UHGV virus genome: UHGV-0065625
DNA length: 17,531 nt
Strand: one strand, 5' to 3'
Source: a virus
Shown in pieces: positions 2,482 through 14,903 of the stretch. The notes below the pieces were generated by a model, which saw only the letters and a program-made list of their open reading frames with translations, searched no databases and had not been told where the DNA came from. Each line of letters begins with the position of its first letter. Position 1 is the first letter of the stretch. A program made the position numbers and the translations under genes.

Positions 2482-4073
2482 CAAAATCATCCGGAGTGAT
2501 TTTAAACGCCGCTGGCGGCGGCCCCGAAGGGATGAGTCCCATGGACGGGAGGAATAACCTTGCTCCCGTTTTGCCTGATACCTCGGCGCTGGATGCCCCT
2601 CCCGTTCTGTTGCCTTACCAGCAGCGCTGGGTGGCAGACACCTCTCCGCTTAAGGTGATAGAAAAGAGCCGTCGTACCGGTATTACATGGGCTGAGGCAT
2701 CCGATAACGTACTGACCGCCGCCTCTTCTGCGCCAGCAGGCGGGATGAATGTGTATTACATCGCTTATAACCAGGACATGACCGTCGAATACATTCAGGC
2801 GTGTGCGATGTGGGCACGGGCATTCAACTATGCGGCCAGTGAAATTGAAGAAGGATTCTGGGAAGAGGACGACGACGACAAACACATCAGGACTTACACC
2901 ATCAAATTTCCTGACTCCGGCTTTCGTATTGTTGCGCTCTCCAGCCGCCCGTCTAACCTGCGTGGCCGTCAGGGTATTATTGTTATCGACGAAGCGGCGT
3001 TCCATGAGCAACTGGACGAACTGCTGAAAGCGGCGCTGGCGATGCTTATCTGGGGGGGGAAGGTACACGTTATCTCCACCCATAACGGTGACGACAATCC
3101 GTTCAATACGCTTATCGGGGATATCCGTGCCGGACGTCAGGGAGGCAGCATACATCGCATCACTTTCCGGGAAGCCGTATCTGAGGGGCTGTTCCGGCGC
3201 GTCTGTCTGCGCACCGGGAAGGAATGGTCGGAGGCCTCCGAGCAGGCCTGGATGGCATCGGTGTACAAATTCTACGGTGCCGGCGCATCCGAAGAGCTTG
3301 ACTGTATTCCGGCCAACGGTGGCGGTGCCTGGCTGTCCCGTGCCCTGATAGAGTCCCGCATGTCCGCTGATACGCCGGTATTGCGTCTGACCTGCAAGGA
3401 AGGTTATGAACTGCTGTCTGATGAGGTTCGCTTCCGCGAGACGCAGGACTGGCTTGATGAGTATCTGAAACCATTGCTGGAGGCACTCCCCACTGATGCC
3501 CGCTCTTTCCTGGGGCGCGACTTTGGCCGTAGCGGTGATTTGTCGGTGGACTATCCCCTGCTGCAGGAGAAGAACCTGGTACGACGCGTGCCATTCGTAC
3601 TGGAGCTGCGTAACGTGCCGTTCAGACAGCAGGAGCAAATCACCTGGTATCTGATGGATGGCCTGCCCGGTCTGCTGGGTGCAGCGTTTGATGCCCGTGG
3701 TAATGGTGCCTATCTGGCTGAATACGCCATGCAGCGCTACGGCTCCAGCCGGATTCAGCAGGTGATGCCAACCGAAGGCTGGTACAGGGAGCATATGCCT
3801 CCGGTCAAAGCTGCACTGGAAGACGGTAACCTGGTGGACTTACCAAAGGATGAAGACACACTGGATGACCTGCGGGCCGTTCAGGTGGTGAACGGTGTCC
3901 CCCGCGTACCGGAGCAACGCTCAAAAGCAAAGGCTGACGGTGGTAAACGCCACGGGGATTCAGCCATCGCACTGGCGCTGGCGTATTTCGCCAGCCGTGA
4001 AATTAACAAAGGGCCGGTGAAGGCAAGCTCACGCCGTCGTCGTCAGGCGGCCCGTATGCTGGAGGGATTCTGA
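2478..4073 (+). CDS. Terminase large subunit
   Basis: 531 codons. Walker-B-like hydrophobic run ending in DE (GIIVIDEAAF) and an upstream P-loop-like segment (KSRRTGIT); C-terminal nuclease-sized domain. Sits between the small-terminase-like gene and the portal gene. Confidence 0.8.
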   Translation: MTKSSGVILNAAGGGPEGMSPMDGRNNLAPVLPDTSALDAPPVLLPYQQRWVADTSPLKVIEKSRRTGITWAEASDNVLTAASSAPAGGMNVYYIAYNQDMTVEYIQACAMWARAFNYAASEIEEGFWEEDDDDKHIRTYTIKFPDSGFRIVALSSRPSNLRGRQGIIVIDEAAFHEQLDELLKAALAMLIWGGKVHVISTHNGDDNPFNTLIGDIRAGRQGGSIHRITFREAVSEGLFRRVCLRTGKEWSEASEQAWMASVYKFYGAGASEELDCIPANGGGAWLSRALIESRMSADTPVLRLTCKEGYELLSDEVRFRETQDWLDEYLKPLLEALPTDARSFLGRDFGRSGDLSVDYPLLQEKNLVRRVPFVLELRNVPFRQQEQITWYLMDGLPGLLGAAFDARGNGAYLAEYAMQRYGSSRIQQVMPTEGWYREHMPPVKAALEDGNLVDLPKDEDTLDDLRAVQVVNGVPRVPEQRSKAKADGGKRHGDSAIALALAYFASREINKGPVKASSRRRRQAARMLEGF

Positions 4074-5566
4074 TGGCGAGGGGTATCTGGGTTTCACCCG
4101 ATGAATTTGTTGCTTTTTCTGAGCCTCAGAAATCACTGACCGCGCAGATTGCCTCCCGCAGCCGCGCGATCGACTTTTACGGACTGGGCATGTATCTGCC
4201 CAATCCTGATCCCATTCTCAAGGCTCAGGGACGGGATATCCGTATCTACCGCGAACTGCGCACCGACCCGCTGGTCGGAGGCTGTATCCGCAGACGTAAA
4301 GCAGCGCTCAAATCGCTGGAGCGTGGACTGGAGCGCGGTCACGCTTCTGCCCGGGTCTTCCGTTTCATCCGCGACATGCTCGACGATCTGGATCTGTCCC
4401 GCATCATCGGTGAGATGAGCGATGCCGTGCTCTACGGGTATCAGCCCTGTGAAATCATGTGGGGCCGTTCGGTCAGGGCGTGGGCGGTGACGGATATTGT
4501 CGGCAAACCGCCTGAGTGGTTTCAGTTTGATACGGACAACTGCCTGCGCTTCCGGGCGCGTGATGCGGGTGTGGAGGGTGAGCTGCTGTCACCGTCAAAA
4601 TTCGTGGTGCCGGCACAGGATGCCTCGTATGACAATCCTTACGGTTTCCCGGACCTGTCCATGTGCTTCTGGCCGGTCGCCTTCAAGAAAGGCGGGATGA
4701 AATTCTGGCTCCGCTTTGCCGAAAAGTTTGGCTCCCCGTGGGTGATCGGTAAGCACCCGAGGGGTGCAAATGATGCAGAGATTGAAAAACTGCTGGACTC
4801 CATGGAGCAGATGGTGGAGGACGCTGTGGCCGCCATCCCCGATGACAGCAGCATTGAACTCAAAGCCGCGGATGGCAAGGCGGACAGCAGCGAGGTATTC
4901 CGCGAGCTGATCACGCTGTCACGCAGTGAGATCTCCATTGCATTACTCGGTCAGAATCAGACCACGGAAGCGAACAGTAACAAGGCCTCTGCACAGGCCG
5001 GGCTGGAGGTGACGGCTGATATCCGCGATGCGGATGCGGACATCATTCAGGCGGCAGTGAATCAGGTCATCAGAACGGTGGTCACCCTGAACTTCGGCGA
5101 TGTGCCGTGTCCGGTCTGGGCCATGTGGGAACAGGAGGCCATTGATGACACCCGTGCCACCCGCGACGAAAAACTCACCCGCGCGGGACTACGCCTGACC
5201 CCGCAGTACTTCATGCGGGAGTACCAGCTGCAGGAGGGGGATATTGACCTCTCTGATGCACCGGTTGCGGACGGGGCAGTGCCTGCGGAGTTTGCCGAGG
5301 CGATAAGCGCCGATCATGATGCACAACAGCAGCTTGACGACGCGCTGGACATTCTGATGAACGGAGGTGTGTTAAATGGCACGCTGGAACCCGTCCTGGC
5401 ACCTCTGTTCAGGCGGGTCGAAAACGGGGTTAACCCGTCTGAGCTGCTGGGCGAACTGGCGGAGCTCTACCCTCAGATGAACACGGACGATCTGCAGGAG
5501 CGGCTGGCCCGCATTCTCTTTGTGGCAAATATCTGGGGGCGTCTGCATGAGCGTGACAACGGCTGA
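4073..5566 (+). CDS. Portal protein (Mu gp29-like)
   Basis: 497-codon ORF directly after the large terminase gene (TGATG overlap), followed by the F-like gene. Size and position are typical of Mu-type portals. No sequence motif confirmed. Confidence 0.7.
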   Translation: MARGIWVSPDEFVAFSEPQKSLTAQIASRSRAIDFYGLGMYLPNPDPILKAQGRDIRIYRELRTDPLVGGCIRRRKAALKSLERGLERGHASARVFRFIRDMLDDLDLSRIIGEMSDAVLYGYQPCEIMWGRSVRAWAVTDIVGKPPEWFQFDTDNCLRFRARDAGVEGELLSPSKFVVPAQDASYDNPYGFPDLSMCFWPVAFKKGGMKFWLRFAEKFGSPWVIGKHPRGANDAEIEKLLDSMEQMVEDAVAAIPDDSSIELKAADGKADSSEVFRELITLSRSEISIALLGQNQTTEANSNKASAQAGLEVTADIRDADADIIQAAVNQVIRTVVTLNFGDVPCPVWAMWEQEAIDDTRATRDEKLTRAGLRLTPQYFMREYQLQEGDIDLSDAPVADGAVPAEFAEAISADHDAQQQLDDALDILMNGGVLNGTLEPVLAPLFRRVENGVNPSELLGELAELYPQMNTDDLQERLARILFVANIWGRLHERDNG

Positions 5567-8173: not shown

Positions 8174-8602
8174 ATGTCTGATTACTTAAAAGGTAAACGT
8201 GTCGTTGATCCGGTACTGACCAGTATCGCCCGAGGCTATAAAAATGCCGCATTCATTGGCGAACGTATTTTCCCCGTCGTGCTGACGGACAAGGAAGGCG
8301 TGCGTGTGCCGACCTTCGGGAAAACCGCCTTTGTGGAATATGACACTGAGCGTGCCGTCGGGGCGGACAGCAATGTTCTGGTCCGTGAGAAAACCGGCAC
8401 GCTTGATCTGGTGCTGGGTGAGCACGATCTGGCTGCGCCGGTGGACTATCGCGAGCAGGCGGAGTCCATGTTTAACGAGGAGAGCAAGGCCATCCGTCGC
8501 GCCACGAATGGCGTGAATCTGCGCCGTGAACTTATCGCCGCCCGTCTGGCTCAGGATGAAAAGGTCTACCGTACGCGAGAAGCTGCCTCAGCTGCAGGTT
8601 GA
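8174..8602 (+). pseudogene. Putative major head subunit, N-terminal 142 codons only (frame break or deletion)
   Basis: Strongest ribosome-binding site in the window (AAGGAG, 5-nt spacing to ATG 8174), directly after the scaffold gene where the major capsid gene is expected. The ORF is far too short for a capsid protein and overlaps the next ORF in another frame. Confidence 0.4.
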
Positions 8603-8996: not shown

Positions 8997-9247
8997 TGAA
9001 AGAATACCGCTATTCCGGCCCGGCCAGCGGCGTCACGCTGTCGGACGGAACCGAAATCCTGCTCTGGCCGGGGAAGACTGTTTCCCTGCCGGAGGAGCAT
9101 GACTACGTGAAGGTACTGGTGGCGCTGAAGCATCTGACGCCGGTATCTGAAGAAATTAAACCCGCCGGCACACCGGCTGTGCAGTCACCAAAGCGCAGGA
9201 ACGGCGGTGACAGCGAGGTGAAAACGGAGGACGCCCATGTCAGCTAA
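8993..9247 (+). CDS. Small hypothetical virion-associated protein (Mu gp38-like position)
   Basis: 84-codon ORF between the head-joining-like gene and the sheath gene. The likely start is ATG 8996, preceded by AGGAAAG. Confidence 0.5.
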   Translation: MMKEYRYSGPASGVTLSDGTEILLWPGKTVSLPEEHDYVKVLVALKHLTPVSEEIKPAGTPAVQSPKRRNGGDSEVKTEDAHVS

Positions 9248-10664
9248 CTATCTGCATGGTCCGGAAACCATTGAAGTGGAAAACGGTGCCCGCCCGGTTA
9301 AAACGGTGAAATCTGCCGTTATTGGCCTGATTGGTACCGCACCAATGGGGGATGTCAATACGCTGGTACAGTGCCTGTCTGAGAAAGACGCTGCGGCATT
9401 TGGCAGCCAGTTCACCGGCTTTACCATTCCACAGGCGCTGGATGCGATTTATGACCATGGTGCAGGCACCGTTCTGGTCATTAACGTACTCGATCCGTCT
9501 GTGCATAAAACCGCTGTGGTCAGTGAGAATGTGTCGTTCGACAAGGCGACAGGCAGAGCCCGGCTGGCTAATCCGGTGGTCGCGCAGCTGGTACTGAAAC
9601 CGGACAGCGACGGTCAGCCTTATGTTGAAGGTCAGGACTACTCGCTTGATGCACAGACCGGGGTGATTACTAACCTGGGTAAAAGCATTGCTGCAGATGC
9701 AACGGTGAAGGCCAGCTATAACTATGCTGATCCGACCAAAGTCACCCCGGCTGATATCATCGGTACCGTTAACGCTGCAGGCAACCGTACCGGCATGAAG
9801 CTGCTTAACGACAGTTTTAACCTGTTTGGCTACTTCGCCAAAATCCTGATTGCTCCGGTATTCTGCACCCAGAACAGCGTCTCGGTTGAGCTTATCGCCA
9901 TGGCTGAGAAACTGGGAGCAGTAACCTATATTGATGCGCCGGTTGGTACCACTTTTGCGCAGGCTCTGGCGGGACGAGGCCCGGAAGGCACCATTAACTT
10001 TAATACCAGCTCTGACCGTGTCCGCCTGTGCTACCCGCATGTGAAGGTATATGACCCGGTGACGAACACGGAACGTCTGGAGCCACTGAGCCAGCGTGCG
10101 GCGGGCCTGCGTGCCAAAGTCGACCTGGACAAAGGGTACTGGTGGTCATCCTCAAATCAGGAAATTCTGGGGATCACCGGCGTGGAGCGCCAGCTGTCGG
10201 CAATGATTGACGATCCGCAGAGCGAGGTGAACCTGCTTAACGAACAGGGGATCACCACGGTATTCAGCAGTTACGGCAGCGGCCTTCGTCTGTGGGGTAA
10301 CCGGACGGCAGCATGGCCAACGGTCACCCATATGCGTAACTTTGAGAACGTTCGCCGCACCGGTGATGTGATCAATGAGTCCATTCGTTACTTCAGCCAG
10401 CAGTACATCGACATGCCGATTACTCAGGCGCTGATTGATGCACTGACGGAGTCGGTCAACGCCTACGGTCGCAAAATGACTGGTGATGGCGCGGTACTGG
10501 GCTTCCGTTGCTGGTTTGATCCGGCCCGCAATCCGGAAACGGAGCTGGCCGCCGGGCACCTGTTGCTGAGCTACAAATATACGCCACCACCGCCGCTGGA
10601 GCGACTGACGTTTGAGACTGAGATCACCTCGGAATACCTGTTAACCCTGAAAGGGGGCAACTGA
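9237..10664 (+). CDS. Contractile tail sheath protein
   Basis: 475-codon ORF with GGAGGA ribosome-binding site, immediately followed (1-nt overlap) by a 173-codon tube-sized gene. This sheath/tube pairing and size are typical of Mu-like and P2-like myophage tails. Confidence 0.8.
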   Translation: MSANYLHGPETIEVENGARPVKTVKSAVIGLIGTAPMGDVNTLVQCLSEKDAAAFGSQFTGFTIPQALDAIYDHGAGTVLVINVLDPSVHKTAVVSENVSFDKATGRARLANPVVAQLVLKPDSDGQPYVEGQDYSLDAQTGVITNLGKSIAADATVKASYNYADPTKVTPADIIGTVNAAGNRTGMKLLNDSFNLFGYFAKILIAPVFCTQNSVSVELIAMAEKLGAVTYIDAPVGTTFAQALAGRGPEGTINFNTSSDRVRLCYPHVKVYDPVTNTERLEPLSQRAAGLRAKVDLDKGYWWSSSNQEILGITGVERQLSAMIDDPQSEVNLLNEQGITTVFSSYGSGLRLWGNRTAAWPTVTHMRNFENVRRTGDVINESIRYFSQQYIDMPITQALIDALTESVNAYGRKMTGDGAVLGFRCWFDPARNPETELAAGHLLLSYKYTPPPPLERLTFETEITSEYLLTLKGGN

Positions 10665-11185
10665 TGTCAAAGATTGAGATAAACCGAATCACGAATGCCA
10701 ACATCTATCTGGATGGTACTAACCTGCTGGGACGGGCTGAGGAGGTTAAACTCCCCGATGTCTCCATGATTATGCAGGAACACAAGGCACTGGGGATGGT
10801 GGGTAAGGTGGAACTCCCGGCTGGTTTTGACAAACTGGAAGGCGAAATCAAATGGAACAGCTTTTACCGCGATGCGATGCTGTCTGCCGCGAACCCGTAC
10901 AAGTCGCTGGCGCTGCAGTGTCGCTCCAGCGTCCAGCGCTACAGCTCGCAGGGGCTGATCGACGAAATCCCGCTGGTCACCTTCCTGACAATTATGTTCA
11001 AGAAGAACCCGCTGGGGACGTTTAAACAGCACGAGAACGCCGAGTTCTCCAGTAGCTTCACCTGCACGTATATCAGACAGGTACTGGATGGTGAAGAGTT
11101 GCTGCAACTGGACTATCTGGCCAACATCTTCCGCGTCGGTGGCGTTGATCAACTGACTGACTATCGGATCAATATCGGGGGCTGA
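10664..11185 (+). CDS. Tail tube protein
   Basis: 173 codons; start overlaps the sheath stop (TGATG). Size and position match tube proteins. Confidence 0.75.
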   Translation: MSKIEINRITNANIYLDGTNLLGRAEEVKLPDVSMIMQEHKALGMVGKVELPAGFDKLEGEIKWNSFYRDAMLSAANPYKSLALQCRSSVQRYSSQGLIDEIPLVTFLTIMFKKNPLGTFKQHENAEFSSSFTCTYIRQVLDGEELLQLDYLANIFRVGGVDQLTDYRINIGG

Positions 11186-11187
11186 CG

Positions 11188-11469
11188 GTGAGTGTTGAAC
11201 TGACTGACAAAGGAGGGCGATGTGCGTCACTGGGCATGTCAAATGGTACGTGGTTTACCCTCCTTGATATTCCGGGGGTGGAAACCCTTTTTAATACCCG
11301 TAAAACCAATGACCCGATTGACTGCACACGTTCAAAGGCCCGCAAACTGGCCGATTTGATTGAAGCATGGGAGCCGCCCGACCACTGGTTCTCCGGCATC
11401 GGCAAATCTGAGGGAAAGGCGCTTCTCATCGCTTTCCTGCGTAACTGCAAGGGTTTTCGCACTTGCTGA
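11188..11469 (+). CDS. Hypothetical 93-codon protein between tube and chaperone genes; possible moron
   Basis: ORF from GTG 11188 (GGGGG 7 nt upstream), Cys- and Trp-containing. Followed by a hairpin plus T-rich tract. No equivalent gene is expected at this position in Mu. Confidence 0.35.
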   Translation: MSVELTDKGGRCASLGMSNGTWFTLLDIPGVETLFNTRKTNDPIDCTRSKARKLADLIEAWEPPDHWFSGIGKSEGKALLIAFLRNCKGFRTC

Positions 11470-11475
11470 CATCAC

Positions 11476-11500
11476 AGGGGCTCCGGCCCCTTCTTCTTAA
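11476..11500 (+). terminator. Candidate rho-independent terminator after the 93-codon ORF
   Basis: AGGGGC-tccg-GCCCCT stem-loop (11476-11491) followed by TCTTCTTAATCTCCTTT. Confidence 0.45.
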
Positions 11501-11566
11501 TCTCCTTTAATATCCGTCACGTCCACCGCCAGACATACTGCTCTGAATTTACAAAGGAGTATGATC

Positions 11567-11902
11567 ATGTCACAGACCCAGTCCGATACTTTTACGCTGT
11601 CTTATCCTTTCACCACTGCTGCAGGTACCAGAATTGAACAGATTGAACTGAAACGCCTGACAGTAAAAGACCTGAAGCAGGTGCGCAAAATCAACAAAGA
11701 CCCGGCAGACTGGGACGAACCACTGATTGCCCGTAGCACCGGTATCCTCCCGGAAGACCTCGATAACATGGATCTTGCCGACTATATGGAGCTGCAGAAA
11801 CGATTTCAGAAAATCACTGGGCTGGGCAAGAGCGACAAAAACACTGATGCAGGCGCAGGGCCTGCTGGCGAGATGGTTCAGGTTTCAGCCGGGGGAGATT
11901 GA
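11567..11902 (+). CDS. Tail assembly chaperone (short, unshifted product)
   Basis: Small acidic ORF between the tube and tape-measure genes. Start set at ATG 11567 (AAAGGAG 7 nt upstream) rather than ATG 11561, which has only 1-nt spacing. Ends at TGA 11900-11902 immediately after a G5 run. Confidence 0.6.
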   Translation: MSQTQSDTFTLSYPFTTAAGTRIEQIELKRLTVKDLKQVRKINKDPADWDEPLIARSTGILPEDLDNMDLADYMELQKRFQKITGLGKSDKNTDAGAGPAGEMVQVSAGGD

Positions 11903-11984
11903 TGCCCTCGATACTGACGATCTGGAGATGTGGCTGGAGCAGGCTGAAGAGCAAATCAAAAGCGAGTTCGGCGACAATCAGTAA
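11567..11984 (+). CDS. Tail assembly chaperone, frameshift-extended fusion product (predicted +1 or -2 slip at GGGGG 11891-11895)
   Basis: The +1 frame is open across the G5 run and encodes a protein-like acidic tail EIDALDTDDLEMWLEQAEEQIKSEFGDNQ ending at TAA 11982-11984. The upstream part of that frame (track ORF 11727..) reads as out-of-frame junk. A conserved frameshift in chaperone genes upstream of the tape-measure gene is established. Confidence 0.4.
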
Positions 11985-11997
11985 CAACGTATCACTT

Positions 11998-12020
11998 AAC
12001 AGCCGCCAGTCGCGGCTGTT
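11998..12020 (+). other. Perfect 9-bp-stem hairpin (AACAGCCGC-cagtc-GCGGCTGTT) between chaperone and tape-measure genes
   Basis: Exact inverted repeat read from sequence; no adjacent U-tract, but a T7 run lies about 30 nt downstream. Confidence 0.4.
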
Positions 12021-12076
12021 CTGCATGGGGTTCAGACACTTCCCTTCCGTTTTTTTGCTTTCAGAGGATAGCCACC

Positions 12077-12583
12077 GTGGCCAGTGAATTTTCAGTCGGC
12101 GTCATTATTGGCGGCATTGTCGGGAGCAGCTTCCGCTCAGCCGTCAGTGGCACCCGACGCGCCCTTGATTCCCTTGGTGATACCTCCCGCCGTCTGCAGG
12201 AACGCCAGAATGCCTTAACCCGGGCAACAGAACGTTATGGTCAACTGGGTTCTTCCCGGATGCAGCATCTCAACAGCGAGTTGCTGCGGGTAAGCCGCAC
12301 CATGGAGCAAATTGAACGTCAGCAGCGCCGTCTGTCAGCAGTATCAGCCACCGGTGATGCGTTGAAGGCTAACCGCCTGGCGCTCTATGGTCAGGGTGCA
12401 GAAACCTATGCTATTGGCAGAACGCTGGGCGCACCGGTCATGGCCTCGGTTAAACAATATGCCTCGTTTGAATCACAGTTGCGGGATATCAGTGTCACAG
12501 GAGACCTGGATGCAAAACAGGAACGTGCAATTGGCCTGGCTATCAGACAGGCCTCGCTGAAGGTTACGGTACATTCTCAATAG
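12077..12583 (+). pseudogene. Tail tape-measure protein, N-terminal fragment (168 codons)
   Basis: N-terminus MASEFSVGVIIGGIVGSSFRSAVSG... and the ...YASFESQLRDISVTGDLD... segment resemble tape-measure N-termini. Far too short for a functional ruler protein; terminates 8-10 codons after the apparent junction with hub-like sequence. Confidence 0.55.
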
Positions 12584-13437
12584 ACGAGATCGAAGTGAGT
12601 TCGCCCGCGTCCGTTGTCGCTATCCGTGGGGTGGCCACCTCGGTTAACAGTGCTCTGCGGACTAAATCCAGCCGTGGTTTTGAGAACACCACGCTGGCAG
12701 CTGTTGCGGGTCGGATTGCCAGAAAGCACCGGCTGAAACTGGTGGGCAGCATTGAGTCCATCAGAATCGACCGGGTGACCCAGTATGCTGAAACCGACGT
12801 GGGTTTTCTGCGCCGGCTGGCCAGCGAGTATGGTTATGCAGTGAAAGTGGTCAGTGACCAGTTGATTTTTTCTCATCTGGCCACATTGCGCAGTCAGGAG
12901 CCGGTCAGGCAGTTAAAACCGCAGGATGTGGCCCACTTTTCCCTGCGTGACACCATCAACCGGGTCTATAAATCTGCAAAGGTAAAACACCAGAAAAGCA
13001 GCAGTAAAAAACTGATCGTCTACGAAGCTGATGGTGGTACCCGTGAAAGCGACAAAAAGCTCAAAGGCGGTAAGGTTACCAGCGCTGACTCACTTAAAGT
13101 TAACAGCCGCGTCAGCGACCCGGACAGTGCTCGGATTAAAGCGGATTCAGCACTGGCCAGACATAACGAATACCAGCAGAACGGCTCCCTGACGCTGACG
13201 GGAACGCCTCAACTGACAGCAGGCAACAAAATTGAACTGGTGGGCTTTGGACAATTATCCGGTCCATGGCTGATAATCACTGCCCGCCATGCGTTTGAGC
13301 GTAACAGCGGCTACACCACAGAGCTGGAAGTGGCACGGGGGCCAGTCACAAGAGGGAAAAAACAAAAAACTCAGAAACTCACGGTTTATCACCCGGATGG
13401 CAGTACATCGACGGTGATTAAGGAGAAGAAAAAATGA
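12472..13437 (+). pseudogene. Baseplate hub / late control D-like protein (P2 gpD, Mu gp44-like), 5'-truncated
   Basis: Frame open from 12472 with no start until GTG 12595. Recognisable hub-family similarity begins at ...EGYGTFSIDEIEVS... (about 12559) and continues (TTLAAVAGRIARKHRL, FLRRLASEYGYAVKV). The N-terminal ~75 residues expected for this family are missing. Confidence 0.55.
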
Positions 13438-14027: not shown

Positions 14028-14903
14028 ATGCGGTTATCAAGATCCTTATGTAAAGTAGTTGGCGATGTCATTGCTAACTCAGGCTCTCATGCAGCTTTAG
14101 ATACGTTATTTCTTACTTCGGGAGCACCAGGAAACCCTCCGGCAGGATCTCATAGTACAAAATGGAAAGACTGGTTATTTCTTGCAGGGCAAGATCCAGA
14201 TACAGATAGTCTGGCAGTTCTGGGCGGAGTAATTGAGGAGTTTATGGATTTACCTCCAAAAGAAGGTACTCCCGAATATGCAGAATGGAAGGAAAAACGA
14301 GACAGAATTGAAGCTGTGTTACAAGAGAATGGACTTAGATATTATCGTTTTGGTCGAGTGTTGCCTGAAGGCCACATCCCGTCACACAATATGGATTACC
14401 CAGAGACCATAATTACTTATCAACAGCCAGTAATGCCAGAAAAAGTTGAGAACTTACTGGAAAGGCTGGTCAAAGGCTTACAGCGAGCAATGCATCCACT
14501 TACTCATAGGCGAAAAGGAAGCCAGTCATTATCTTTTAGCAATGAATATGACGTGCAAGACCTTCTCCATGCATTGCTCAGACCATGGGTTCAGGACATC
14601 CGCCCAGAAGAGTTTACTCCAAGTTATGCTGGTTCAAGTACTCGAATGGATTTTTTGTTACCTGCGCATAAATTAGTACTGGAAACCAAAATTGTTCGTG
14701 ATCGTTCTCATGCAAAGAAAATCGGCGATGAACTTATTATCGATATAGAGCATTATCGTCGGCACTCTGATTGCAAAAATCTCTGGTGTGTCATCTACGA
14801 TCCGAACCAGCTTATTACTAATTCTGAGGGGCTGAAATCTGATCTTGAGGGGAAGAGAGTTTCTAAAGACGGAGAACTTATCGTCAAGGTTTTCGTAATT
14901 TAA
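14028..14903 (+). CDS. Cargo protein with C-terminal PD-(D/E)xK nuclease-like domain and N-terminal domain of unknown function; candidate defence/abortive-infection effector
   Basis: 291 codons. Motif read from translation: acidic helix NEYDVQDLLHAL (E173/D175), then RMD208FLLP, then LVLE219-T-K221 with 10-residue D-to-E spacing. No Walker motif in the N-terminal ~165 residues. Nuclease assignment is motif-based inference. Confidence 0.6.
   Translation: MRLSRSLCKVVGDVIANSGSHAALDTLFLTSGAPGNPPAGSHSTKWKDWLFLAGQDPDTDSLAVLGGVIEEFMDLPPKEGTPEYAEWKEKRDRIEAVLQENGLRYYRFGRVLPEGHIPSHNMDYPETIITYQQPVMPEKVENLLERLVKGLQRAMHPLTHRRKGSQSLSFSNEYDVQDLLHALLRPWVQDIRPEEFTPSYAGSSTRMDFLLPAHKLVLETKIVRDRSHAKKIGDELIIDIEHYRRHSDCKNLWCVIYDPNQLITNSEGLKSDLEGKRVSKDGELIVKVFVI

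Follow-up and report, generated by a model that had tools for sequence, protein, structure and literature searches.

A probable accessory cargo gene ahead of a conserved terminator-like hairpin between the tail tube and chaperone genes of a BcepMu-like Escherichia coli prophage

Results

Gene order and features of the tube–chaperone interval

The window, that is, the whole stretch of 17,531 nt that was analysed (virus genome UHGV-0065625), belongs to a BcepMu-like myovirus prophage of E. coli, which combines a Mu-type head with a P2-type tail. Its segment 10,664–12,100 is 100% identical to the corresponding sequence of E. coli strain 503025 and 89–93% identical to those of Escherichia phage PhiKM (Bcepmuvirus) and 'Klebsiella phage KP12', and the region was found in 641 of 5,426 complete E. 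coli genomes (~12%). The tail sheath and tail tube genes are followed by a small ORF of 93 codons (ORF93), a GC-rich hairpin and the leader of the tail assembly chaperone gene, arranged as follows:

9,237–10,664, + strand: tail sheath gene (matches to PF04984 and PF17482)
10,664–11,185, + strand: tail tube gene of the gpFII type (PF04985, E 2e-53), the upstream anchor of the slot
11,186–11,475, + strand: segment inserted relative to ORF-less close relatives according to the alignment, comprising ORF93 and its stop codon, preceded by a 2-nt and followed by a 6-nt spacer
11,188–11,469, + strand: ORF93, 93 codons plus stop, GTG start (phrog_1239 match, dN/dS, AlphaFold2)
11,476–11,491, + strand: terminator-like GC hairpin AGGGGC-TCCG-GCCCCT (folding, stem conservation across loci)
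11,492–11,501, + strand: T-rich tail TCTTCTTAAT, interrupted; TTTCTTCTTAAT in most relatives
11,502–11,566, + strand: conserved leader of the chaperone gene (alignments of loci with and without ORF93)
11,504–11,515, 11,532–11,547 and 11,555–11,560: leader motifs CCTTTAATATCC, GACATACTGCTCTGAA and the Shine–Dalgarno sequence AAGGAG, respectively
11,567–11,902, + strand: tail assembly chaperone gene of the gpE type (PF10109, E 1.5e-22), the downstream anchor of the slot
up to 11,984, + strand: overlapping chaperone extension ORF in the +1 frame (ORF list)

The interval between the tube and chaperone genes measures 375–381 nt, because the chaperone ATG can be placed at 11,567 or at 11,561. The former is the likely start; it is the one annotated by RefSeq in strain 503025, and the AAGGAG box lies 6 nt upstream of it. 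Both the ORF and the GC hairpin with a T-rich tail, which the earlier note had described from the letters of this interval, are indeed there. The GTG start of ORF93 is separated from the TGA of the tube gene by only 2 nt, and the ATG at 11,220, which lies behind an AAGGAGG sequence, was rejected as its start since it is out of frame. No Rfam family was detected within 10,600–12,200.

ORF93 is a conserved member of a phage protein family

The length of ORF93 is uninformative by itself because spurious ORFs of like size are abundant in the other frames of the window, and the signal that rises above chance is its conservation. Pairwise Nei–Gojobori comparison of 17 intact copies (91 pairs) gave a median dN/dS of 0.09 with 30–47 synonymous differences per pair, versus a dN/dS of 0.023 for the tube gene, whose product is 91–100% identical across more than 100 related loci. 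As judged from this substitution pattern, ORF93 was shown to be a real gene under purifying selection. Searching a database at E ≤ 0.001 yielded 34 homologues, which come from E. coli, Salmonella, Citrobacter, Serratia, Shigella, Morganella, Photorhabdus and others and are conserved from the initiating residue onwards (MTVEI/L-DKGG...), and the GTG start codon of the window corresponds to an ATG at the same position in the relatives. The base composition of ORF93 is not distinct from that of its neighbour (GC 0.525 vs. 0.529 for the tube gene). RefSeq already lists its product as a hypothetical protein (WP_000110115.1).

The entire ORF93 protein (residues 1–93) aligned with positions 1–96 of the 96-position PHROG profile phrog_1239 (E 5e-48), which was also matched by the homologues from phages Sf6 (gp22), EPP-1 and fHe-Yen8-01. 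The score against DUF7739 (PF24881) was 25.7 bits (E 1.7e-5), confined to residues 12–67 and below the gathering cut-off of 27; at E ≤ 0.01, 12 of 48 representatives of the ORF93 family matched this domain, the best of them with E 7e-19, and two proteins nearly identical to that of ORF93 (P0001 and P0002) carry a precomputed PF24881 match. From the sub-cut-off score of ORF93 itself and the 12 matching representatives, we infer that it represents a divergent branch of DUF7739. A profile search among 1.84 billion representative proteins gave 73 clusters at 50% identity, almost all of which consist of stand-alone proteins of ~93 aa. Longer proteins containing the domain were rejected as true architectures, since they proved to be fused calls with the neighbouring DUF2737, lambda P, YopX or Gp37 genes.

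The predicted protein has a mass of 10.3 kDa and a pI of 8.4, and its AlphaFold2 model is a confident, compact alpha/beta fold (pLDDT 88, pTM 0.80). The family shares the motifs NGTWF, TNDP, W-PP--W and F--C-GF-T. Neither a hydrophobic or transmembrane segment nor a signal peptide was detected in ORF93 (Kyte–Doolittle maximum over 19 residues 0.68; GRAVY −0.28). The pI of the family members spans 4.0–9.7, hence no conserved mechanism based on charge is expected, and DNA mimicry was rejected for ORF93 on the same grounds. Foldseek comparison of the model with PDB and BFVD found nothing significant, the profile of the ORF93 family had no match among PDB sequences, and no hit to ORF93 was obtained with the NCBIfam profiles or, at E ≤ 1, with the defence profiles of PADLOC-DB 2.0. 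Literature searches with DUF7739, phrog_1239, DUF2737, fHe-Yen8-01 and the protein accessions returned nothing useful; in outline, the Tai paper (PMC11364771), which concerns the genes orf63/orf64 of phi80, has no evident link with the ORF93 locus.

ORF93 was probably inserted upstream of a pre-existing hairpin

ORF93 was situated between the tube and chaperone genes in each of the 20 genome loci and 80 IMG/VR loci that carry it. In other relatives, the chaperone gene follows the tube gene directly, as the earlier note had stated for tail operons of this type: the ORF-free gap measures 121 nt in BcepMu and ~140 nt in Ralstonia phage YO107_2, only 5 nt separate the two genes in Pseudomonas phage Bise, and ~50 nt lie between them in an E. 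coli ECO95 contig. The closer relatives were collected by a tube-protein alignment scan of IMG/VR, from which the best 80 of 415 tube relatives (tube identity ≥91%) were taken. Sixty-one of these had ORF93, another 10 had a second small gene followed by ORF93, and nine prophages with 91–97% identical tubes were devoid of ORF93.

An empty junction was found in seven of the nine ORF93-less prophages, and six of the seven have both the hairpin and the same leader. In these six (L242, L255, L257, L258, L259 and L262, tubes 94–97% identical), the tube stop codon is followed by 10–45 nt, the GC hairpin, the leader also seen in the window (TTTCTTCTTAAyCCCCTTTAATATCC ... GACATACTGCyCTGAA ... ACAGGAGCA ...) and the ATG of the chaperone gene. 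The seventh, L268, has kept the leader but the hairpin is absent. When L242, L255, L258 and L259 were compared with the window, the alignment extended to the end of the tube gene, was broken by a single gap of ~290 nt and resumed at the hairpin. According to these alignments, the acquired piece is essentially ORF93 alone, from 11,186 to ~11,475.

ORF93 thus behaves as the insert-like accessory ORF that the earlier note had proposed, being absent from BcepMu, YO107_2, Bise, ECO95 and the nine close tube relatives and having homologues elsewhere in unrelated phages. The hairpin, which had been counted as part of the same insert, is not: since ORF-less close relatives carry it in the same place together with the same leader, it appears to predate ORF93. 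Nucleotide-level homology of the BcepMu and Ralstonia leaders with the enteric leader could not be shown, and for this reason the argument for an ancestral hairpin is built on the close ORF-less relatives. In principle, these could have arisen by precise secondary losses instead of preserving the ancestral state. An inserted gene beside a terminator is in any case an ordinary kind of phage mosaicism.

ORF93 is frequently lost or broken

Broken copies of ORF93 were found in 18 of 103 loci (~17%), as against about six for the tube gene, a target of twice the length. Among the lesions are frameshifts, a 5′ deletion and nonsense mutations affecting W61, C12 and W22; some of the frameshifts may be sequencing errors, which does not apply to the nonsense mutations and the deletion. 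The 5′ deletion is common to four Photorhabdus species, in which the hairpin and the leader are intact, and most of the loci with a broken ORF93 have retained intact sheath, tube and chaperone genes. An essential tail gene is expected to be intact wherever the tail module is intact, and ORF93 departs from this both by its absences and by the 18 broken copies. By this pattern of loss, ORF93 is a dispensable gene. The earlier note had regarded the absence or disruption of the ORF in close relatives retaining the same non-coding sequence as evidence against it; exactly this situation was observed, but it demonstrates that the gene is dispensable, not that the frame is non-coding.

The tube–chaperone slot holds alternative genes

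Across the relatives, the slot is either empty or contains ORF93 alone, ORF93 preceded by a Gp49-family gene, or a phrog_9518 gene. The Gp49-family gene encodes a 97-aa protein related to N4 Gp49 and Sf6 gp66 (PF13876, E 7e-13) and lies between the tube gene and ORF93 in loci L012, L015, L017, L022 and L029; in the tube scan, it accounts for the second small gene upstream of ORF93 in 10 of the 80 loci (best 80 of 415). In L267 and L270, ORF93 is replaced by an unrelated 67-aa phrog_9518 gene, and a version of the hairpin of their own is present. Every one of these cargo genes sits upstream of the hairpin. In Pantoea stewartii, an IS element has been inserted in the hairpin tail. Judged from its varied contents, the tube–chaperone slot is a cargo hotspot in the BcepMu-like relatives.

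The hairpin is conserved as a structure

The hairpin has a predicted free energy of −12.8 kcal/mol (z = −2.75), only two of 200 shuffled sequences folding equally well, and it was the top-ranked terminator-like site of the entire window on both strands. It consists of six base pairs (five of them G–C), a tetraloop and at least five T residues within the following 8 nt, as is typical for the sequence of intrinsic terminators. The GGGGC/GCCCC stem was unchanged in 99 of 101 ORF93-bearing loci, among which the loop varies (TCCG, TTCG, TGCG, TTAG, ATCA). The two exceptions are a C-to-T change in the stem, which retains a wobble pair, and the locus disrupted by the IS element of P. stewartii. Between the same genomes, the synonymous sites of the flanking genes are near saturation (dS 0.5–2.8). 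On this comparison, the hairpin is under selection.

Eight distinct stem sequences occur across the lineages and all of them pair. Besides that of the window, these include GGGGGCC/GGCTCCC, GGGAGC/GCTCCC, GGGGCC/GGCCCC and GGAGGGA/TCCCTCC, as well as CGGGGC/GCCCCG in ECO95, GGCCCGC/GCGGGCC in BcepMu and GGCCCAC/GTGGGC in the Ralstonia phage, each followed by a T-rich run. Because the stems differ between lineages and yet pair, a structural element is favoured over a sequence bound by a protein. The pattern agrees with an intrinsic terminator that closes off the sheath–tube segment. The T run is uninterrupted (T6) in BcepMu and L267 but interrupted in the enteric lineage (TTCTTCTTAAT), which suggests a leaky or partial terminator in the window; termination may be weak or even absent there.

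The hairpin could also serve RNA stability or processing only, or mark a site acting at the DNA level, with TTTAATAT as the −10 box of a separate, activator-dependent promoter serving the genes from the chaperone to the baseplate. An interrupted T tract would be accounted for in this way, and the leader, common to loci with and without ORF93, contains the motif CCTTTAATATCC, which is better conserved than the hairpin and is retained in the hairpin-less L268. We regard such a role as possible but doubtful. Stems that change from lineage to lineage and remain paired point to the structure instead of a specific protein-binding site, BcepMu and L267 possess the uninterrupted T6, and all of these roles would be compatible with partial termination.

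Homologues of ORF93 occupy early regions of other phages

Homologues with 38–54% identity were identified by tblastn in the podovirus Sf6, in CUS-3, in the siphovirus HK75, in EPP-1 and in phages of ~92–100 kb, mostly in early regions. In Shigella phage Sf6, the homologue is gene 22, flanked by a DUF2737 gene and an ead/Ea22-like gene, with abc2, erf and a Lar-like gene nearby; in Edwardsiella phage EPP-1, it is located between rdgC and the integrase gene. Among 80 Sf6-type loci from IMG/VR, ead/Ea22 was present in 70, DUF2737 in 64, abc2 in 49 and erf in 35. This neighbourhood is that of the early-left operon of lambdoid and P22-like phages. Of the matches on plasmids, 102 out of 105 were on non-mobilisable and two on conjugative ones, and among the plasmid matches listed, those of ~91–119 kb look like phage-plasmids of the size of pHCM2 and P1. 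A link to the leading regions of conjugative plasmids was rejected on account of these two observations.

According to the collected matches, the ORF93 family is restricted to phages, and temperate enterobacterial phages of no fewer than five kinds have it in common. In phages other than the BcepMu-like ones, it is located in regions that are transcribed in the course of lytic growth. Its placement in an early operon of lambdoid phages versus a late one here fits a function in the lytic cycle without fixing the time of action.

Discussion

A consensus scan of the + strand between 9,932 and 13,248 revealed no sigma-70-like site, and as only the sigma-70 consensus was used, the scan could have overlooked a promoter within the tube gene that is weak or depends on an activator. 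ORF93 is probably part of the sheath/tube message, since no promoter-like site was found and merely 2 nt separate it from the tube gene. It would thus probably be transcribed along with this abundant message, and its translation would probably be coupled to that of the tube gene, giving a late, high-level product during lytic growth. The hairpin would probably act as a leaky intrinsic terminator, possibly also as a stabiliser of the 3′-end of the message, by which the sheath, tube and ORF93 message would be kept more abundant than the message of the low-copy genes for the chaperone, tape measure and baseplate. This accords with the attenuator suggested in the earlier note, a plausible idea in that the hairpin has been retained across lineages whose differing stems still pair. 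Cargo acquired upstream of the hairpin would consequently fall on the high-expression side.

Considering the presence–absence pattern, the family relationships and the gene order together, we consider it reasonably probable that ORF93 is a mobile accessory gene of the phrog_1239/DUF7739 family, inserted with ORF precision in front of an older hairpin, expressed late in coupling with the tube gene and encoding a dispensable accessory protein of the lytic cycle. A lytic-cycle role is proposed because the homologues reside in the early-left operon, which is repressed in the prophage state. A narrower version, in which the product, a small soluble alpha/beta protein, would act by binding another protein as a host-modulating or counter-defence factor and not as a tail component, is put forward tentatively, with well short of even confidence.

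The nearest competitor as to the function of ORF93 is a lytic factor unrelated to defence, which would act in DNA replication or recombination or on host physiology and would have been brought into the late operon by chance recombination. Its neighbours elsewhere (erf, ssb, abc2 and rdgC), the fused gene calls with lambda P, YopX or DUF2737 and the confinement of the family to phages and phage-plasmids all agree with this reading. Nevertheless, neighbourhood in mosaic early regions is weak functional evidence, late expression in BcepMu-like phages would be odd for a replication or recombination protein, and no nucleic-acid-binding motif or fold was found in ORF93. We judge this explanation rather unlikely.

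A moron expressed from the prophage and protecting the lysogen by superinfection exclusion or anti-phage defence, as Tab of phage JBD26 does, is somewhat less likely again. Such a role would suit a small gene that was added to the late operon of a transposable-phage-like prophage and varies between relatives; Tab sets a precedent for prophage expression from within a late operon (PMC10884400), and the prophage family is common, as its frequency in E. coli genomes indicates. Superinfection exclusion had been offered as an example in the earlier note, but it is disfavoured by the lack of a sigma-70-like promoter upstream together with the 2-nt distance from the tube stop codon, by the lack of a membrane segment or signal peptide in ORF93 and of any PADLOC match, and by the location of the lambdoid and P22-like homologues in the repressed early-left operon beside abc2, erf and ead. 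The disruption of about 17% of the ORF93 copies also weighs against a lysogen-protecting gene.

Immune systems that sense the phage tube, such as DSR2, exist. In a more far-reaching and, in our view, improbable extension of the counter-defence reading, the slot would be a dedicated site for counter-defence cargo produced in step with the tube and sheath, and ORF93 would neutralise an immune sensor triggered by late structural proteins. The company of its homologues in lambdoid early operons, namely anti-RecBCD and anti-restriction genes, would thereby be explained as well.

A role in the tail, either as a cofactor of the tube or as a packaged protein of the enteric BcepMu-like virions, was brought to mind by the fixed position of ORF93 between the tube and chaperone genes in more than 100 loci, its coupling to the tube gene and the homologue of Yersinia phage fHe-Yen8-01, which its depositors labelled 'particle associated protein' (no paper behind this label was found). 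However, prophages with 91–97% identical tubes do without ORF93, copies are broken at loci with intact sheath, tube and chaperone genes, and homologues reside in the early regions of phages without a contractile tail, namely podoviruses and siphoviruses. A tail-assembly function is nearly excluded by these absences, broken copies and early-region homologues. Finally, the idea that ORF93 is an open frame present by chance in spacer DNA without coding function, fed by the many ORFs of similar length in the other frames of the window and by an antisense 97-codon ORF (11,169–11,462) overlapping it, has already been refuted by the low dN/dS over 30–47 synonymous differences per pair, the full-length profile matches and the confident AlphaFold2 fold, and hardly any likelihood is left to it.

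It is well known that phage structural operons take up accessory genes and that terminators follow major structural genes. What is modestly new here is the anatomy of an insertion that is exact to the ORF and lies ahead of an ancestral terminator, together with the different cargoes of the slot and the link to a family of lambdoid early regions. If the interpretation is correct, the locus provides a clean, alignable case of cargo being added without new regulatory signals on the high-expression side of an existing terminator, and marks a single small slot that can take three or more different cargoes. It would also point to the widespread DUF7739/phrog_1239 family as a source of counter-defence or host-modulating candidates that are cheap to test. 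Current concepts are not altered by these findings.

Comparison with known systems

The closest counterparts of ORF93 are the Sf6 gp22, phrog_1239 and DUF7739 proteins, which resemble it in size, motifs and stand-alone form and share 38–54% identity over the full length. Genes of the Sf6 gp22 type belong to the early regions of phages (P22-like, lambdoid and EPP-1) and of phage-plasmids, whereas ORF93 lies in a late tail operon.

With the lambdoid morons (the Hendrix/Juhala concept; reviewed in PMC3594210), ORF93 has in common that it is an extra gene between genes adjacent in relatives, is shared horizontally and is followed by a terminator-like hairpin; like a moron, it is missing from collinear relatives. 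A classical moron is a transcription unit that brings its own promoter and terminator. In contrast, no promoter was detected for ORF93 by the sigma-70 consensus scan, ORF93 adjoins the stop codon of the tube gene, and the hairpin is older and occurs with the leader at empty junctions. ORF93 is therefore better termed an in-operon cargo gene than a classical moron.

Tab (tail assembly blocker) is an 83-residue protein of Pseudomonas phage JBD26, a Mu-like phage; its gene lies in the late operon between the terminase genes and is expressed from the prophage (PMC10884400). ORF93 is likewise a small protein (93 vs. 83 aa) without a domain of known function, and its gene too was added to the late operon of a temperate phage of the Mu-like type; this likeness carries no claim of homology. 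Tab is expressed by the prophage, while neither the PADLOC comparison nor the promoter scan gave a sign of defence or prophage expression for ORF93.

DMP12 of Neisseria is a strongly acidic DNA-mimic protein. Its structure (PDB 3w1o) resembles the ORF93 model in fold only, at 6% identity and a non-significant Foldseek E of 1.7, and the pI of 8.4 sets ORF93 apart from acidic DMP12 and from the acidic surface characteristic of DNA mimics.

Phage late operons are known to carry intrinsic terminators or hairpins behind their major structural genes. The hairpin downstream of ORF93 differs from typical ones in the interrupted T tract of the enteric lineage. Like the known late-operon terminators, it combines a short GC stem, a stable tetraloop and a T-rich tail behind the most abundantly needed tail genes, and its position is conserved across the BcepMu-like family.

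Alternative cargo and disrupted copies in the slot behind the tail tube gene

The slot between the tail tube stop codon and the GC hairpin at 11476–11491 holds ORF93, the 93-codon ORF of the window (11188–11469, +), but in several of the related loci (L-numbers) other genes occupy it, and in one an IS element lies just behind it:

About 3718–4011 in L017: 97-aa cargo gene of the N4 Gp49/Sf6 gp66 family (PF13876, E 7e-13)
About 2027–2230 in L267 and L270: 67-aa gene replacing ORF93 in the slot (phrog_9518, function unknown)
4300–5650 in L017 (Pantoea stewartii): IS element with a DDE_Tnp_1 transposase, directly 3′ of ORF93

In L012, L015, L017, L022, and L029 the 97-aa gene is a second cargo gene, placed after the tube gene and before ORF93, whose start it overlaps; it is present in ten of the 80 closest tube relatives. 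The 67-aa gene is unrelated to ORF93 and is followed in both loci by a different hairpin (GGAGGGA/TCCCTCC) with a run of six Ts.

Disrupted copies of both ORF93 and the hairpin were also detected. The IS element of P. stewartii is inserted at the 3′ arm/T tract of the hairpin. In four Photorhabdus species (L026, L027, L028, and L030; about 4000–4200), one common 5′ deletion removed approximately residues 3–44 of ORF93 and left the start codon out of frame; the hairpin, the leader of the chaperone gene, and the adjoining tail genes are intact.

A homologue of ORF93 in the 92.5 kb Yersinia phage fHe-Yen8-01 (L005, 3001–3309) is annotated as “particle associated protein”, and a neighbouring gene, about 6.4 kb long, carries the annotation “ADP-ribosyltransferase toxin, phage particle associated”. 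The literature search found no publication against which the basis of these labels could be checked.

Integrity of the prophage in the window

Compared with the near-identical prophage of E. coli strain 503025, two segments are absent from the window, while the identity elsewhere is 99.9–100%:

~8572–8574: 1388 nt absent, reaching from the gene of the major capsid protein to the gp36-like gene
~12565–12566: 3341 nt absent, covering the greater part of the tape measure gene and reaching to the gpD-like gene

Since the second segment is absent, the ORFs at 12077–12583 and 12595–13437 represent the N-terminus of the tape measure protein abutting a gpD fragment. Neither junction was found in 5426 complete E. 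coli genomes. The window contains either a defective prophage or a mis-assembled or spliced sequence. IS100 and IS2, which interrupt the prophage in strain 503025, are also absent from the window (at ~14456–14463 and ~14739–14749), and consequently the 291-aa gene at 14028–14903 is uninterrupted.

Leader and extension of the chaperone gene

The leader (11502–11566) of the gpE-type tail assembly chaperone gene (11567–11902, +) contains two motifs, and another stable hairpin lies further downstream:

11504–11515: leader motif CCTTTAATATCC, upstream of the chaperone gene
11532–11547: leader motif GACATACTGCTCTGAA, upstream of the chaperone gene
11998–12022: second hairpin, ACAGCCGC-CAGTC-GCGGCTGT, 3′ of the chaperone extension ORF and 5′ of the tape measure start (12077)

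Both motifs are at least as conserved as the hairpin behind ORF93 and are kept in L268, a relative lacking that hairpin. The TAATAT in the leader might serve as the −10 element of a promoter that depends on an activator. The second hairpin lacks a clear T tract.

Relative to the chaperone gene, the conserved extension (…RWFRFQPGEIDALD…) at 11727–11984 is read in the +1 frame, not in the −1 frame into which frameshifts of tail chaperone genes usually lead. A run of five As at 11837–11841 is a candidate slip site.
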